The notes under the pieces: generated by a model
What the model saw: only the letters and a program-made list of their open reading frames with translations
Told to the model about the DNA's origin: nothing
Database searches by the model: none
Position numbers and translations under genes: made by a program
Assembly: GCA_029882335.1 (NCBI GenBank)
Contig: JAOUKW010000001.1
Location: forward strand, 1-51,360
Length of the DNA: 51,360 nt
Direction of reading: 5' to 3'
From: Candidatus Heimdallarchaeota archaeon
GTDB lineage: Archaea > Asgardarchaeota > Heimdallarchaeia > Heimdallarchaeales > Kariarchaeaceae
In this document: piece by piece, positions 5,433 through 16,006 of the stretch
Layout of the letters: the number at the start of each line of letters is the position of its first letter
Position numbering within the stretch: the stretch's first letter is position 1

Positions 5433-7484
5433 ATGAGTAATAAGTTATCTAAAGATGAAGTAATTGATATTATAGTAAAAGAAACAGATTATACTAGAGA
5501 TGAAATAGAAGAAAAAATAAGAGAAACCGTTGAAATGATGGATAACATGGTAAATGAAGAAGGTGCTGCGTATGTAGTAGCAAATCATTTGAATGTTGTA
5601 ATTCATTTTGATAAATCTAGCGATTTATTAAGGATAAATCAATTAATCCCTGGACAATCTAACATAACAATTATTGGGCGATTATCCAAAATTTTTCAAG
5701 CTCGTAATTTTAATAGAAAAGATGGATCAACTGGAAAGGTTCAAAATTTAGAGTTGATTGATGCAACTGGTAATATTAGAGTAGTTCTGTGGGATAATGC
5801 AACGAATCTTATAAAGGAAAAAAATTTATCAGTGGGAAAAGTTATTCGATTAATTGGAGGTAATACAAAACTTGGATTAAATAATACCACTGAGCTATCT
5901 ATTGGATCCCAAGGAACGATATCTGAAGTGGTAAATTATGATAAAAATGATTATCCTGAGGTAAAACATTCCGATCTTATTTCAATTGGCGATATATCTA
6001 CTTCAAATCAAGAAGTGAGTATCCGGGGAAAAATCATGGATATACAACCAATTTATGAATTTTCAAGAGAAAATTCAACTGGAAGAGTAATGAGTACAAA
6101 TGTAAAAGATGTAACTCAAGAAATCCGAGTAGTATTTTGGAATGAACAGTGCGAAATTGGATTAAAATTAAAAATAAATGATGTAATCGAAATAACAGAT
6201 GTTAGAGTTAGTGAAAATAAAAATGGTTATTTAGAATTAATTTACAATTCACATTCTCAGTTAAAAATGGTTGATGATCCAACCCTAGCATCATTATCAG
6301 GTAGTATTAGTAGGGAAATAAATCAATTATCTGAAATTTCTGAGGATATGGATTTTGTGTCATTTAAAGGCAAAATATTAACAATTCAGGAGAAAAAAGA
6401 ATTTAATAGAAATGGAGAATCCAGTTATTTACAAAATATAATGGTTAAAGATAATACGCGAAATATTCGAATTACCTTATGGGGTAATAAAACAGATGAT
6501 CTGACTGAATTTAAAGAGGGCGATTTTATACGAATAATTAACGGTCAACCAAAAATCAGTTCATATTCGGGGGAGTTAGAGATATCATGTGGTTCAAGAT
6601 CTTCTATTGAAAAAATCCCAGCATTTGATATAACAAGTACCTCTGATGTGGTATTATCCCAAATAGATATTCCAATGAGTGGGGTAAATATCAAAGTAAA
6701 GGTAGAAAAAATCTTTGAAACAAGAGAATTTACAAGAGATGATGGTTCCACGGTAACTGTTTTAAACATCTCTGTAGTTGATAAAGAGGGGAATAGAGGT
6801 AAAATCGCTGCATGGGATGATAATATATCAAAATTAAGTGATATCAATGAAGGAGATGCGATTCTTATAGAAAACTCAAAAATTAAACCAAGTTCAGAAT
6901 ATGACCCGGAAATAAGTATCAATCCCTATTCCACTATTCAGATTATTGATGTAGATGAAGTAGTACCTATATTTCAAACTGCTGATAAATTAACAGATAA
7001 TATTATCTATCAAAACGTAACATTAGATGAATTACAAACTAATATGTATGTTAAAGTAAAAGGAACTATAGTGAAGGCATTTAACCCTTTTATTTATGAT
7101 TCTTGTAAAAAATGCAATAAAAAAGTAGATATGAATGGATTACAATTCAATTGTGCTGAACATGGGGAAGTAGAGGTAAATAAAAATATGATACTTACAA
7201 TTGTTTTGGATGATTCTTCTACTACTTGTAACTTAAAATTTTTTGGAAGACAAGCAGAAAAACTACTAGGTATGAGTGCAAAAGAAGCAAAGGATTTAAT
7301 TGATAGATTACAGGATGATCTTGCTCCTATAACTAAATCTGATATCTCGATGAAAGATATAATGATAGAAGGTAAGGTTAATTATGATGAGCACAGAGAT
7401 CAGTTGGAAATACAAGTAAGAAATGTTGAATTGATTTCCTTATATGAGGATACAAACTCGATATTAGATCAATATGATTTTTAA
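5433..7484 (+). CDS. rpa: Replication protein A (RPA/RFA) large, multi-OB-fold single-stranded DNA-binding protein
   Basis: Four repeats of an OB-fold pattern: IRVVLWDNAT, IRVVFWNEQC, IRITLWGNKT, GKIAAWDDNI. C-terminal zinc ribbon CKKCNKK-x11-CAEHG. The ORF track starts at GTG 5424; ATG at 5433 (MSNKLSK) is the more likely start. Confidence 0.75.
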   Translation: MSNKLSKDEVIDIIVKETDYTRDEIEEKIRETVEMMDNMVNEEGAAYVVANHLNVVIHFDKSSDLLRINQLIPGQSNITIIGRLSKIFQARNFNRKDGSTGKVQNLELIDATGNIRVVLWDNATNLIKEKNLSVGKVIRLIGGNTKLGLNNTTELSIGSQGTISEVVNYDKNDYPEVKHSDLISIGDISTSNQEVSIRGKIMDIQPIYEFSRENSTGRVMSTNVKDVTQEIRVVFWNEQCEIGLKLKINDVIEITDVRVSENKNGYLELIYNSHSQLKMVDDPTLASLSGSISREINQLSEISEDMDFVSFKGKILTIQEKKEFNRNGESSYLQNIMVKDNTRNIRITLWGNKTDDLTEFKEGDFIRIINGQPKISSYSGELEISCGSRSSIEKIPAFDITSTSDVVLSQIDIPMSGVNIKVKVEKIFETREFTRDDGSTVTVLNISVVDKEGNRGKIAAWDDNISKLSDINEGDAILIENSKIKPSSEYDPEISINPYSTIQIIDVDEVVPIFQTADKLTDNIIYQNVTLDELQTNMYVKVKGTIVKAFNPFIYDSCKKCNKKVDMNGLQFNCAEHGEVEVNKNMILTIVLDDSSTTCNLKFFGRQAEKLLGMSAKEAKDLIDRLQDDLAPITKSDISMKDIMIEGKVNYDEHRDQLEIQVRNVELISLYEDTNSILDQYDF

Positions 7485-9551: not shown

Positions 9552-11497
9552 CCTAGACTTTTGTAGGTAATATTACTTCAAGTTAAGTAAGTATAGTGAT
9601 TCTGCCAAACGGCACTTGATGGATACCTTGGCTGAGAAACCGACGAAGGGCGTGGCTAGCTGCGATAAGCTTAGGGGAGACGCATGCAGTCTTCGATCCT
9701 AAGATCCCCGAATAGGAATCCATTGTACGTCCAAAAAGCGTACAAATCCTCTTTTGAGGAAGGGAACCCACTGAACGAAAGCATTCAAGTAAGTGGTGGA
9801 AAAGAAAGCAACAGCGATTTCCTTAGTAACGGCGAGTGAAAAGGAACCATGGTCAAACCGAATATTATTTTGAAAAAAATAATAGATGTGGTGTTGTGGA
9901 CCGAAACCAATGCTTAGCAGACATAAATCGAACTCTTTTGGAACAAAGGGCCATAGAGGGTGAAAGCCCCGTAGATGTAAGTCTGTTGCTACGAGTTTCG
10001 TCATCCAGACTAGGGCGCATTGGGTGTTGCGTCCAAACTTCGAGAACTAACTCGAAAACCTAAATATTAATCTCAGACCGATAGAAAACTAGTAAATTGA
10101 TTGAAAGGTGAAAAGTAGCGGTAACACGCAGTGAAAAGAGCTTGAAATCAAGTGCTTATAGAGTATAATGGCGTAAAAGGATAGAGACTCGATGTACCTA
10201 TAATCGGTGACGATTCTACGGGAATCGAGTTTACCAGCGTCATTGTGTCAGTCTTGAAACACTGGTCAGGGAGTTTATTCGAGTGGTGAGACCAAGATAA
10301 TATCTAAATCGTAGGGAAACCAATCAGTCCGCAGCATTGCAAGGGACAACGTCTGAAAGGGCGTGAAATCACTCGAATAAGATGCGAAAGGCGTCGATCT
10401 ATGCGTGGCCAGGTTGAAGCCGTGGGAAACTACGGTGGAGGACCGAAGGGGTATTGATATACAACTCATTCCTCTGAGCTGCGTTTAGTAGTAATAGGCT
10501 AATCTAGGCGTCTGATAGCACATTACCGTCGAAGTGGAGCCGCAGTCCAGCGTTGGGCGAGTAAAATTTGAAGGTAGAGTACAGACAGTGTTGGAATGGG
10601 GAATTTATTCCTCGCCGCACCATCTAACTCCGAATGTCAAATTTATTTAGACCCCAGCAGTCGGGCGGGTCGCCGTAAGGGTGATCGCCGAGAAGCGAAT
10701 AAGCTAGATTTGGGTTAAGGGCCCTAAATGTCAATTAAGTGTAAAAATGAAGAGCGTCGTATTCCGAAGACAATGTGATGGTAAGCTTAGAAACAGCTAT
10801 CCATTAAAAAGTACGTACTAGTTTACACATCGAGGAATACGGCCTTGAAAATGGACGGGGCTAAAATTGACTCCCGATACCCAAAGGCATGTATAACAAC
10901 ATGATCCGGTAGACGGTCGATCGGCGAGGGTTGAAGCAGGTTGGTGATGACCTGTGGACCTCGTCGATGCGCAGATCCTGATAGTAGTAGGCAGAAAATA
11001 TGGGTGAAAATCCCATAGGTCGAAAAGGCAAGGGTTCCTGGGCAACGTCAATCGACCCAGGGTAAGTCGATCCTAAGAGTAGCCTTAGTATGGTTATCTC
11101 AAAAGGGAAACAGGTTCATATTCCTGTACCACGCTTGAAAACCGGCAACGATAGGAGGAGATCAGACGTTTGTGGATAGGCTTTTCTGGATCGTCGTCCA
11201 GACTAAGTATATAATTCCGGGGAGTAATGTTACATTGAGAACCGGAAAAAATTACCAATGGCCCACCAATAGTGGTAGGTAAGGTCGATTTCCAAAAACC
11301 CATGAAAATGATCTTCTTTAATACAGCGTGATCGTACCAACAACCGACACGGGTGTCCTTAGGCTGAGAAAGCTAAGACCTCTTGGAGTAATGCAGGCAA
11401 GGGAATTCGGCAAATTAGGCGAGTAACTTAGGGATAATCGCTGCCTTTACATGTTCACGCGTGCGAAGGTGTCACTAACTCAGGAAACCCGACTGTT

Positions 11498-11917
11498 AAA
11501 TTTTGTTTGACAGTAAGTGTCCTGATGAAAATCGGGGCAAGTTACATGCGATGTAGCAACATCATCAAATTGCGGGAAAATCCTAAAGCTATTAATACTC
11601 TTCATTCTGAGAAATCTGAATAGAAAACCAGGGTAATGACCTCGGGCATAGTAACAACTTAATAGATATATGGACGATCCGCAGCCAAGCTCTAACTCAA
11701 TTTATTGATATGAGTGCAGTTCAACGACTAAACGGTGATGGGTGATAAATCTCATTGATTTATTGCTTAAGATATAGTCTGTCTCGCTAGAAATAGTGTT
11801 TGTCGTAAATGTATAATATGAAATCGCAATTAGAGTAATATTATAAGAAAGGACAGAATTGATATTGTGAAAGAAAGTAATTTAAATTTTACTCATCATG
11901 ATATTATAGTGAAAACG
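11498..11917 (+). ncRNA. Group I self-splicing intron (ORF-less, 420 nt) within 23S rRNA
   Basis: - It splits the universal GACUGUU|UAACAAAAACA block.
- P1: exon actgtt 11492-11497 pairs with gacagt 11509-11514 and ends in a U.G pair.
- P10: ttttgtt 11501-11507 pairs with exon aacaaaa 11919-11925.
- The intron ends in G (11917).
- Core elements: tcaaattgcgggaaaatcc (P, 11565-11583), atccgcagccaagctctaa (Q, 11677-11695), gcagttcaacgactaaacgg (R, 11716-11735), aagatatagtctg (S, 11769-11781).
- P7 is gacta/tagtc. Confidence 0.85.
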
Positions 11918-12590
11918 TAACAAAAACATAGCAAACTGCTACGCTGAAAAGCTTTGTATAGTTTGTGAATCCTGCTCCGTGCTGGTAAGTCAAATCCGGG
12001 TTCAACCGGGCTAAGCTCCAGTTAACAGCGGGAGTAACCATGACTCTCTTAAGGTAGGCAAATGCCTTGTCGGATAATTACCGACGCCCATGAAGGGACC
12101 AACGAGGTTTCCACTGTCCCTGCCTGGAATCCAGTGAACCTACAGTCCGGCGAACAGTCCGGAGAGTTCCGTTGGGAAGAGAAGACCCTGAGAGCTTTAC
12201 TATAGCTTCCAGTTGTTTATTCGGCTCTCGTACAGAGCGTAGTTAGGAGACTTTGAAGTCAGGTCCCCGGGCCTGATGGAGTCAACAATGGAACACTAAC
12301 TTCGTGGGCTGGATAGACTCACCTGTTGCGACGGGGACACCTGGTGGTGGATAGTTTGGCTGGGGCGGCACGCCTCCGATAAGGAAACAGAGGCGTCCAA
12401 AGGTCGGCTCAGGAGGGACAGAAATCCTCCGTAGAGTACAAGGGCATAAGCCGGCTTTACTGTGAGCACAAAAATCCTGCTCGCTGTTAAGAAATTAGGG
12501 CCTAGCGATCCATCCAATTGCCTTTAGTAGGCGTGGGTGGTGGCAGAAAAGTTACCTCAGGGGTAACAGAGTTGTCGCGGGCTATAGTCC

Positions 12591-12952
12591 ACACATGTGG
12601 TTTAGTCAATCATACCTCAACTTTTCTGGTCTCTGTGTTCGTTATATTGATCTAATAGATCACTTAACCACCAAAGAAATAAAAATAGTAATGCTTTTAG
12701 CACTCATTGCCGTGAGTGCACCACTTCAGGTCTTTCCTAACGTATAAGGGAAGAAGAATATCCAAACCGATCACACCACAGTAGGGTTTTCCCAATGATC
12801 TGTGTGTTGGTCTAGAATCCATTAAACTCCCCTTATACCCTAAGAGTAGATCTGAATGGCCGTAAAGTTATTACATTTCCCAGCATAATGTTTATCTATG
12901 AAATGTCTAACAATGGTTAACTAAACCCTCAAGCTGAGGCTTGTATTGGGAT
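12591..12952 (+). other. Second ORF-less insertion (about 362 nt) in 23S rRNA at the helix 89 apex; intron or intervening sequence of unresolved class
   Basis: The flanks gtcgcgggc-tatagtcca and tattgac-cccgcggcttgc rebuild the conserved H89 stem and a 16-nt loop (UAUAGUCCAUAUUGAC; archaeal consensus as recalled is GAGAGCCCAUAUCGAC). The insert is visibly AT-richer. It is structured: closing stems 12599-12606/12920-12927 and 12664-12670/12914-12920, hairpins at 12700-12719 and 12731-12754. The junction is ambiguous by 1 nt. Confidence 0.7.
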
Positions 12953-13511
12953 ATATTGACCCCGCGGCTTGCTTCCTCGATGTCGGCTCTTCCTCGCTTG
13001 GTGTTGCATAGGGCACCTAGAGTAGGGTTGTTCGCCCGTTAATAGGGAACGTGAGCTGGGTTCAGACCGTTGTGAGACAGGTTGGTTTCTATCTAACGGA
13101 ACTGTTGGGTGATTGTAAGCAAAATGACTTCAGTACGAGAGGAACGAGTTGTTGTGGCCTCTGGTCGATGGGTTGTCTGACAAGGCACTGCCCAGTAGCT
13201 ACGCCATTACAGATAAGAGCTGAAAGCATCTAAGCTCGAAGCTGTTCTTGAAAAGAATCACCCACTCAGCAATAGTTGATAAAGTCAAATTTGTACTTCC
13301 AGTACAAATACAATGATAAAATCATTCTGGGATCAGTGATGATAACGGAAATATATTGCAGACGAGGACATGGAAAAAAGATCCGTTGAAAGGAATGGGG
13401 TGTAAGCGTTGAGCTCCGGCGAAATGTTTAGCCCACATTTACTTACGTCCAAGGCGTTTCACTTGAAAGCTTTTCGAGGAGTAGTACCTAGAGCAATTGT
13501 ATAGGAAGAGT

Positions 13512-15130: not shown

Positions 15131-16006
15131 TTATCTAAAATAATCAAATATAGAATTTCTATCTATGTTATCCAATCCAAGTTTTTCTTTTACTACAATT
15201 TTATTCCTTGCAACAGGATCTGTTTCATCTAAGGTAGGAATTGTAGTTTCATAAAATATTCCAGTTGGTATTTTTTCTCCCCATTCAAGACTTCTAGAAA
15301 AAGCATCACTTAGATTTGATTTATCAAAATTAATGTCTTCTAATTTGTATACTCGTTGTTTAAACCATTGAAATGTATTTAGCTTATTAAATGTTACACA
15401 AGGGCTTAGTACATCTATAAATGAAAATCCTTTATGATTTAAAGCTCTTTCAATTAAATATCGTAGATGTTTAGTGTCTCCACTAAATCCTCTTGCAACA
15501 AATGTTGCTCCTGCTCCCAATGCCAGTGAAATGGGGTTAATTGGTCTTTCATCTACTCCAGAGGGTGTTGTTAAAGTTATATGTCCCTGTTGAGATGAGG
15601 GTGATGATTGACCAAGTGTTAATCCATAAATCTGATTATTCATAACCATATATACTATATTGATATTTCTCCTAGCAGTGTGGATAAAATGACCTACCCC
15701 AATTCCATAACCATCTCCATCTCCTCCAGCTACAATAATTTTTAAACTTGGATTGACCATATGCAGACCATAGGCTGCAGGTAATGCACGTCCATGTATC
15801 ATATGAATACCATACGCTGAAGTCCAATGGGGAAAAGAACTAGAACAACCAATTCCACTAATTATTACAGTCTCATTCGGTTGATATCCTAAATCTGATA
15901 AAACAGATGTAGTTGCAGATAATAAACCATAATCTCCACACCCAGGACACCAATTTGGTTTTACATCTCCTTTAAATTTTATTTTTTCTAATTCATCTTT
16001 ATTCAT
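15131..16006 (-). CDS. korB: 2-oxoacid:ferredoxin oxidoreductase, beta (TPP-binding) subunit
   Basis: N-terminal WCPGCGDYG, TPP-binding GGDGDGYGIG...NNQIYGLT. It overlaps the upstream alpha subunit by 8 nt. Confidence 0.85.
   Translation of the reverse strand: MNKDELEKIKFKGDVKPNWCPGCGDYGLLSATTSVLSDLGYQPNETVIISGIGCSSSFPHWTSAYGIHMIHGRALPAAYGLHMVNPSLKIIVAGGDGDGYGIGVGHFIHTARRNINIVYMVMNNQIYGLTLGQSSPSSQQGHITLTTPSGVDERPINPISLALGAGATFVARGFSGDTKHLRYLIERALNHKGFSFIDVLSPCVTFNKLNTFQWFKQRVYKLEDINFDKSNLSDAFSRSLEWGEKIPTGIFYETTIPTLDETDPVARNKIVVKEKLGLDNIDRNSIFDYFR

Follow-up and report, generated by a model that had tools for sequence, protein, structure and literature searches.

The 51,360-nucleotide (nt) stretch of DNA analysed here, referred to below as the window, carries a large-subunit (LSU, 23S) ribosomal RNA (rRNA) gene flanked by genes for an Arf-family GTPase and the small subunit of PolD (DP1), and this rRNA gene is interrupted by an insert of exactly 420 nt. 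The insert is very probably a genuine group I intron of the IC1-like kind, without an open reading frame (ORF), in the 23S gene of a Heimdall-group Asgard archaeon. Archaea were long regarded as lacking group I introns, and here a nuclear-type class, dominant in eukaryotic nuclear rRNA genes, appears in an rRNA gene from the archaea most closely related to eukaryotes. An original prediction had proposed an ORF-less group I intron with an IC1-like core in an archaeal 23S gene of an Asgard-like host, and each part of it now has its own backing. For the intron, this is the score against the Rfam group I model, exact homologues without the insert, covariation over three introns and ORFs of at most 45 amino acids (aa); for the gene, the match to the archaeal LSU model (2318 bits) inside a 51-kb contig of archaeal genes. 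The host assignment draws on the relatives of the PolD small subunit, the neighbouring Arf-family GTPase and a homologous intron in a Candidatus Heimdallarchaeota genome, and the IC1-like core on P2/P2.1, P5abc, P9.1/P9.2, P13 and an alignment to eukaryotic nuclear LSU introns.

The insert, its boundaries and its host gene

The whole window was scanned against Rfam, and all coordinates are window positions (table 1). The family Intron_gpI (RF00028) matched at 11514-11800 with 114.9 bits (E 2.9e-29) over model positions 1-253 of 253, far above the gathering score of 50 bits, which places 11498-11917 in this family over the full model. The same scan found no small-subunit (SSU) or 5S rRNA gene in the window; the LSU gene stands alone. 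As originally read, the conserved LSU block is split after GACUGUU (11491-11497) and resumes with taacaaaaacatagc at 11918. Comparison with other Asgard 23S genes, which together with the RF00028 search had been named as a check on the prediction, found the site empty in four related LSU genes (L139, L146, L147 and L148), in which the junction GACUGUU/UAACAAAAAC is continuous. The LSU gene of L139, which is syntenic with the window (Arf GTPase, LSU, PolD-DP1), aligns with a gap of exactly 11498-11917, and those of L146, L147 and L148 are likewise uninterrupted, all four reading CCCGACTGTTTAACAAAAACATAGC. Because these genes read straight through, the splice sites are known to the base, and the insert is optional at a base-exact site in homologous genes.

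Since AACUGUUUAUUAAAAACA corresponds in the alignment to 1772-1789 of E. coli rrlH, the insertion lies after E. coli position 1778 (L1778), a refinement of the earlier estimate of 'near 1780'. The LSU model alignment places it in the loop of a small hairpin, UGU...ACA, which we take to be H65 of domain IV on the E. coli map. The L1925 site is uninterrupted, as had been stated, with gactctcttaaggtagg intact at about 12043-12059, and a search of the open literature found no mention of L1778 as a group I site. The longest ORFs touching the intron encode 41 and 45 aa and both extend into exon sequence, in agreement with the claim that none of 60 aa or more lies inside; with no intron ORF above 45 aa, the homing endonuclease of a mobile group I intron is missing.

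The insert could instead be a bulge-helix-bulge (BHB) intron removed by the archaeal splicing endonuclease, its group I fold being incidental or vestigial. In a junction scan of all registers within 3 nt, none has the 4-base-pair (bp) helix, the two 3-nt bulges and both outer helices, and the best register is without any exon-exon helix. With no complete motif found, this reading was rejected, and we regard it as scarcely credible. Archaeal BHB rRNA introns are also intervening sequences at conserved rRNA sites; the Heimdall intron differs from them in having no BHB motif and a complete group I core.

Table 1. Features of the intron and its host gene, in window coordinates
Feature	Position	Strand	Basis or remark
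Host gene, archaeal LSU (23S) rRNA, 3864 nt including intron	9598-13461	+	Rfam RF02540 LSU_rRNA_archaea, 2318.1 bits, model positions 1-2987
Group I intron, 420 nt, no ORF, omega-G end (G11917)	11498-11917	+	RF00028 and gap in intron-less LSU
P1 5' exon strand ACUGUU; U11497, last exon base, in U.G wobble	11492-11497	+	Invariant in three intron-bearing genes
Internal guide: P10 strand UUUUGUU 11501-11507, P1 strand GACAGU 11509-11514	11501-11514	+	Pairing model
P2, 9 bp, GAAA tetraloop 11527-11530	11518-11539	+	Three compensatory pairs; in minimum-free-energy (MFE) fold
P2.1, 7 bp, loop UGCGAU 11547-11552 (proposed P13 partner of 11823-11828)	11541-11557	+	Four compensatory pairs
P3 5' strand CAUCAUC, partner GGUGAUG 11734-11740	11560-11566	+	Invariant in three sequences; MFE fold
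P4-P5-P5abc domain	11571-11683	+	Covariation, MFE fold, alignment to eukaryotic nuclear LSU introns
P4	11571-11576 / 11678-11683	+	MFE fold
P5	11581-11585 / 11669-11674	+	MFE fold
P5a	11589-11599 / 11650-11653 and 11659-11665	+	Five compensatory pairs; MFE fold
P5b, L5b GAAA 11611-11614	11601-11625	+	Seven compensatory pairs; MFE fold
P5c, sequence CCAGGGUAAUGACCUCGG	11628-11645	+	MFE fold
A-rich bulge ACAAC	11654-11658	+	Model
P6, P6a, P6b; J6a/6b = CUAAC 11692-11696 and UAUG 11709-11712	11684-11720	+	Model; MFE fold
P7 5' strand: A11724, bulged C11725, GACUA 11726-11730	11724-11730	+	Invariant in three sequences
P8	11742-11766	+	Pair count; MFE fold
J8/7 (UUAAGAUA) and P7 3' strand UAGUCU 11775-11780	11767-11780	+	Sequence reading, model
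P9, 5 bp, GAAA tetraloop 11790-11793	11785-11798	+	Closing pair AU, CG or UA in three sequences; MFE fold
Peripheral 3' extension: P9.1 11799-11857 (loop AUCGCA 11823-11828), P9.2 11860-11906	11799-11906	+	MFE folds, three homologues
P10 3' exon strand AACAAAA	11919-11925	+	Pairing model

Core helices and their support in three homologues

Two further Heimdall-group LSU genes, with 79-81% identical rRNA, have a homologous intron in this position, namely L008, from 'Candidatus Heimdallarchaeota archaeon CSMAG_823' (429 nt, 116.5 bits against RF00028), and L145, from a JGI metagenome contig (390 nt, 99.1 bits). The elements originally read from the window sequence are present: P1 with its wobble between U11497 and G11509, P10, the final intron base G11917 and the quoted core strings (aaattgcgggaaaa, ccgcagccaag, ttgatatgagtgcagttcaacgactaaa and taagatatagtc). 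For P7, the strands gacta and tagtc were correctly named, and the second lies at 11775-11779 rather than 11776-11780. The introns of L008 and L145 also end in ...CG, so that all three close on the omega-G, and P10 measures 7 bp in the window, keeps six of its seven pairs in L008 and is shorter in L145. The G11726-C11779 pair of P7 is the likely guanosine-binding pair; in other introns, AAC-GACUA is found together with UAGUC-U, and ACA-GACUA with UAGUC-G. We take J6a/6b to resemble the 11-nt GAAA-tetraloop receptor of the Tetrahymena P4-P6 domain.

A P1-P10 pairing model was written on an alignment of the three introns, and its pairs were counted. Of 103 modelled pairs, 96% of cells are paired across the three introns, and 23 pairs have changed on both sides, against 7.9 +/- 2.2 in shuffled controls, of which none in 500 reaches 23; when partners are slid by 1-3 columns, 35-45% are paired and two or three two-sided changes remain. 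The compensatory pairs fall in P2 (3), P2.1 (4), P5a (5), P5b (7), P6b (2), P8 (1) and P9 (1). The MFE fold of the single window sequence has a z-score of -3.9 and returns P2, P2.1, P3, P4, P5, P5a, P5b, P5c, P6a, P6b, P8, P9, P9.1 and P9.2, and the 3' parts of all three homologues fold into the same P9, P9.1 and P9.2 layout, even though this periphery is only 51-59% identical among them, against 73-84% in the core. The loops L2.1 and L9.1 are complementary in the window (UGCGAU/AUCGCA), in L008 (AUACGAU/AUCGUAU) and in L145 (UUCACAGU/AUUGUGAA), and this complementarity of 6-8 nt, kept through differing letters, is the pattern expected of a P13 kissing helix. P13 is said, in work by Lehnert and colleagues from 1996, to be typical of subgroup IC.

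The architecture is IC1-like. P2 and P2.1, both with compensatory changes, lie upstream of P3; P5abc (11589-11665) has the A-rich bulge and the L5b tetraloop, with 12 compensatory pairs in P5a and P5b; J3/4 ends in AAU (11568-11570) and P6 consists of a GU and a CG pair (G11684.U11720 and C11685-G11719); and the 3' side bears the P9.1/P9.2 extension, with the L2.1-L9.1 complementarity in all three homologues. The upper part of P5a reads UACU/AGUA. The P4-P6 domain aligns column for column with the introns of two eukaryotic LSU genes (L018 and L015) and of a giant-virus metagenome-assembled genome (MAG; L160), and the L018 intron interrupts a eukaryotic nuclear LSU gene at L1921. Introns at L1921 in fungi are assigned to IC1 and show the same AAU in J3/4 and GU-CG pairs in P6 (PMC3112068), while a Tetrahymena-type P5abc is limited to a minority of group I introns (PMC2860135).

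Several points weigh against this assignment or temper it. The intron is called IC1-like from its architecture and its alignment to eukaryotic introns, and splicing, self-splicing in particular, is predicted. P1, P3, P4, P5c and P7 are invariant and gain no support from covariation, so that P3, P4, P5c and P7 draw theirs from the Rfam model and thermodynamics, and the shuffle control overstates significance because only three homologues, mutually related, were compared. In contrast to Tetrahymena, L2 is a GAAA tetraloop, so that a Tetrahymena-type P14 (L2 with L5c) is not apparent. Finally, the L145 core (15380-15430) carries A-to-G changes in J7/3 (GACUAGA) and in J8/7 (AAGGUAUAGUC).

These L145 substitutions, at two normally conserved core positions, are part of what would suggest a decayed group I intron that no longer self-splices and is either dependent on host proteins or remains part of the mature rRNA, much like an expansion segment. 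Such decay would also fit an intron without a homing endonuclease to maintain it, in a gene that tolerates another large insert, of about 360 nt, in H89. Against it, the catalytic core (P1 U.G, guide, P10, P3-P8, P7 G-C, J8/7 and omega-G) is intact in three lineages whose rRNAs are about 15-20% apart, and the helices have been kept by compensatory change while the periphery drifted. Moreover, the small hairpin at the insertion site is universally conserved, and a 420-nt insert retained there would be expected to be harmful. We therefore consider decay quite unlikely and a genuine intron the far better reading. The two altered positions of L145, normally invariant, may represent a linked change in a tertiary contact.

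Occurrence in Heimdall-group LSU genes

The window sequence is identical to an ENA metagenome contig, and the genome has a guanine plus cytosine (GC) content of about 29%. The best non-self homologues of its PolD-DP1 are 51-57% identical, those with names belonging to Heimdallarchaeota, Heimdallarchaeota LC_2 and Kariarchaeaceae, and on this basis the host is a Heimdall-group Asgard archaeon without a close sequenced relative. The gene order Arf-family GTPase, LSU rRNA, PolD small subunit, RPA-like protein, VWA and AAA is kept in L139 and L146, whose DP1 proteins are about 53-56% identical; between L008 and the window, no synteny was found.

Three of the seven sampled Heimdall LSU genes are occupied at L1778 (the window, L008 and L145), and four are not: L139 (GCA_024280435.1), L146 (GCA_026702845.1), L147 (GCA_964600735.1) and L148 (GCA_054021655.1). 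L008 came from a scan with a loose core pattern, in which each prokaryotic species was represented by one genome and L008 was the sole archaeal locus among 13; of the other 12, six were eukaryotic ribosomal DNA (rDNA) binned into prokaryotic MAGs, and six held group I introns only or no Rfam match, without rRNA. L145 and the intron-less relatives were reached by following PolD-DP1 homologues to their contigs, six of ten such look-ups giving no usable LSU at the site; the pattern scans had missed L145 because its core carries GACUAGA and AAGGUAUAGUC. A metagenome scan with the core pattern GTTCAACGACTAAACGG...GCTTAAGATATAGTCT gave at least 119 loci, with no full-length relative among the matches listed, and ten loci sampled from these were multi-intron contigs without rRNA. 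BLAST among the fetched loci returned no further members of the intron family.

A neighbour-joining tree of gap-free LSU columns, with intron presence and absence marked by plus and minus, has the form (L148-, (L008+, (L145+, ((L139-, L146-), (L147-, window+))))), the window and L147 pairing with 98% bootstrap. From this topology the intron distribution is patchy, reflecting either one early gain with at least two losses or repeated gain. Core identity between introns is 83.6% for the window and L008 and 73.4% for L145 with either of them, and the corresponding LSU identities are 83.8% (window-L008), 85.4% (window-L145) and 82.2% (L008-L145); the intron and host groupings are thus in mild conflict, which is not decisive.

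Many prokaryotic MAGs are contaminated by eukaryotic rDNA contigs whose intron cores are very similar, and metagenome assemblies are often broken or wrongly joined at rRNA genes; the last 118 nt of contig L003 appear to stem from a different organism. For these reasons one might suspect a eukaryotic or giant-virus group I intron mis-joined into an archaeal rRNA contig by assembly or binning. This suspicion is extremely improbable for the window. The intron lies within one continuous archaeal LSU gene, on a 51-kb contig of archaeal genes identical to the ENA contig, and in two archaeal LSU genes that other projects assembled independently, diverged homologues (73-84% core identity) are inserted at precisely this position. 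The guide is complementary to archaeal exon sequence on both sides, and the GC content of the intron (0.33) lies between that of the host genome (0.29) and that of the rRNA exons (0.46).

L003 was itself considered as evidence that the same strain has an allele without the intron, and was rejected as proof. The contig ends in the intron-less junction also seen in the four relatives. From 11918 on it is 99.9% identical to the window, and the upstream 118 nt represent a different intron-less LSU (6559-6680), which differs from the window at 14 positions and matches no fetched genome. Here the assembly graph probably branched at the edge of the intron, with the assembler switching organisms. Contigs L010, L015, L016 and L018, from species-representative genomes labelled as bacterial or archaeal (Arsenicibacter, Methanobacterium and Nocardia), are likewise nuclear rDNA of eukaryotes bearing several group I introns, a case of binning or assembly contamination.

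The second large insert of the LSU gene (12593-12954, about 362 nt, GC 0.38) lies at the tip of H89, near E. coli position 2475. An insert of 250-470 nt is present there in all seven Heimdall-group LSU genes examined; the motifs GAUUUAGUC and GGGAAGAAGAAUAUCC are common to the seven, and the remainder is very variable. The H89 insert matched no Rfam family (E up to 1), and its borders showed no consistent bulge-helix-bulge motif. It is either an undescribed expansion segment near the peptidyl-transferase region or an unrecognised intervening sequence. Compared with E. coli, smaller inserts occur at 10175-10228 (54 nt, after 542) and 13266-13329 (64 nt, after 2790), where the ES9 and ES39 expansions of Asgard archaea have been described (PMC7594248). 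The L1778 introns and the H89 insert inflate the apparent length of Asgard LSU rRNAs and need to be recognised before expansion segments are compared.

Proposed splicing, origin and relation to known introns

In the proposed mechanism, P1 would form in the pre-rRNA between the end of the 5' exon, ACUGUU, and the guide GACAGU, with the 5' splice site marked by the U11497.G11509 wobble. A free guanosine cofactor, bound in P7 at the G11726-C11779 pair, would attack this site. P10, formed by UUUUGUU and AACAAAA, would position the 3' exon, and omega-G11917 would take the place of the cofactor in the guanosine site; the freed 5' exon could then attack the 3' splice site, restoring GACUGUUUAACAAAAACA with the ligated-exon junction GACUGUU-UAACAAAA. 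The fold may be stabilised by the Tetrahymena-type P5abc, with its A-rich bulge and with L5b GAAA docked on J6a/6b, and further by the GAAA loops on P2 and P9 and the putative L2.1-L9.1 kissing helix (P13). The intron has no homing endonuclease, and its patchy presence might stem from old vertical inheritance followed by losses, from reverse splicing or from a combination of the two.

An intron kept at one site in several deep Heimdall lineages, with an architecture otherwise typical of eukaryotic nuclear rRNA genes and unlike the kinds so far reported in archaea, raises the question of whether nuclear rDNA group I introns came from the archaeal host or were exchanged between Heimdall archaea and eukaryotes or giant viruses. 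A P5abc-bearing IC1 lineage may have resided in Heimdall-type rRNA genes before eukaryotes, nuclear and giant-virus IC1 introns then descending from this archaeal stock. This is compatible with the data because three Heimdall lineages with LSU rRNAs 15-18% apart have the same site occupied, because intron composition has drifted towards that of the host and because no eukaryotic donor closer than about 70% identity came to light; we nevertheless hold it to be unlikely.

Among archaeal introns, the closest body of comparison is the one systematic survey, that of Nawrocki, Jones and Eddy in 2018, which described 39 group I introns, all IB4 or IA3, at L1923, L1931, L2500, L2593 or S1498, with LAGLIDADG genes in 21 of the 39 (PMC6125680). 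In that survey, RF00028 and ten other subtype models, IC1 included, gave nothing significant, and no Asgard host was accepted, a single Lokiarchaeota-binned contig being rejected as bacterial (PMC6125680). The Heimdall intron shares with this set its occurrence in archaeal rRNA genes from metagenomic assemblies, its detection by covariance model and, with some members, the lack of an ORF. It stands apart from the IB4 and IA3 introns by its IC1-like structure with P5abc, P2.1 and P9.2, its site at L1778, its detection by RF00028 at 115 bits and its Heimdall-group Asgard host. No description of a group I intron in Asgard, Heimdall or Loki archaea came up in full-text literature searches, and a paper on Asgard rRNA expansion segments mentions only the removal of known intronic regions; within the literature searched, an IC1-like intron at L1778 of a Heimdall-group LSU gene is undescribed.

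Giant-virus (Nucleocytoviricota, IMG/VR) introns share with the Heimdall intron the P3-J3/4-P4 string CAUCAUCAAAUUGCGGGAAA, a P5abc-type P4-P6 domain and the P7/J8/7 core, with about 70% identity over roughly 230-250 nt. They differ in their viral and apparently non-rRNA contexts, in often lying many close together, and in their guide sequences and peripheral domains. Some contigs from freshwater metagenomes and giant-virus MAGs (L092 746-8096, L020, L043 and L166) carry many same-strand ORF-less group I introns a few hundred bases apart, with 11 RF00028 matches in about 7.4 kb of L092; no rRNA gene lies nearby, and several of their P5abc-type P4-P6 domains are about 70% identical to that of the Heimdall intron.

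The nearest likeness is to the eukaryotic nuclear IC1 introns (Tetrahymena L1925; fungal L1921 and L798). Shared with them are the P1-P10 core with P2 and P2.1, a P5abc with UACY/RGUA in upper P5a, an A-rich bulge, L5b GAAA and a receptor-like motif in J6a/6b, the bulged nucleotide in P7, AAU in J3/4, the GU-CG P6, P9 followed by P9.1 and P9.2, and P13 between L2.1 and L9.1. P5c, CCRGGGUAAUGACCUNGGG, is nearly identical to that of the L018 (L1921) and L015 eukaryotic introns, and most nuclear introns likewise have no ORF. Unlike them, the Heimdall intron resides in an archaeal 23S gene, at L1778 rather than L1921 or L1925, and because its core is only about 70% identical to those of nuclear and giant-virus introns, no recent donor is identified. 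The intron is nonetheless an ordinary representative of a ribozyme class that is very well understood.

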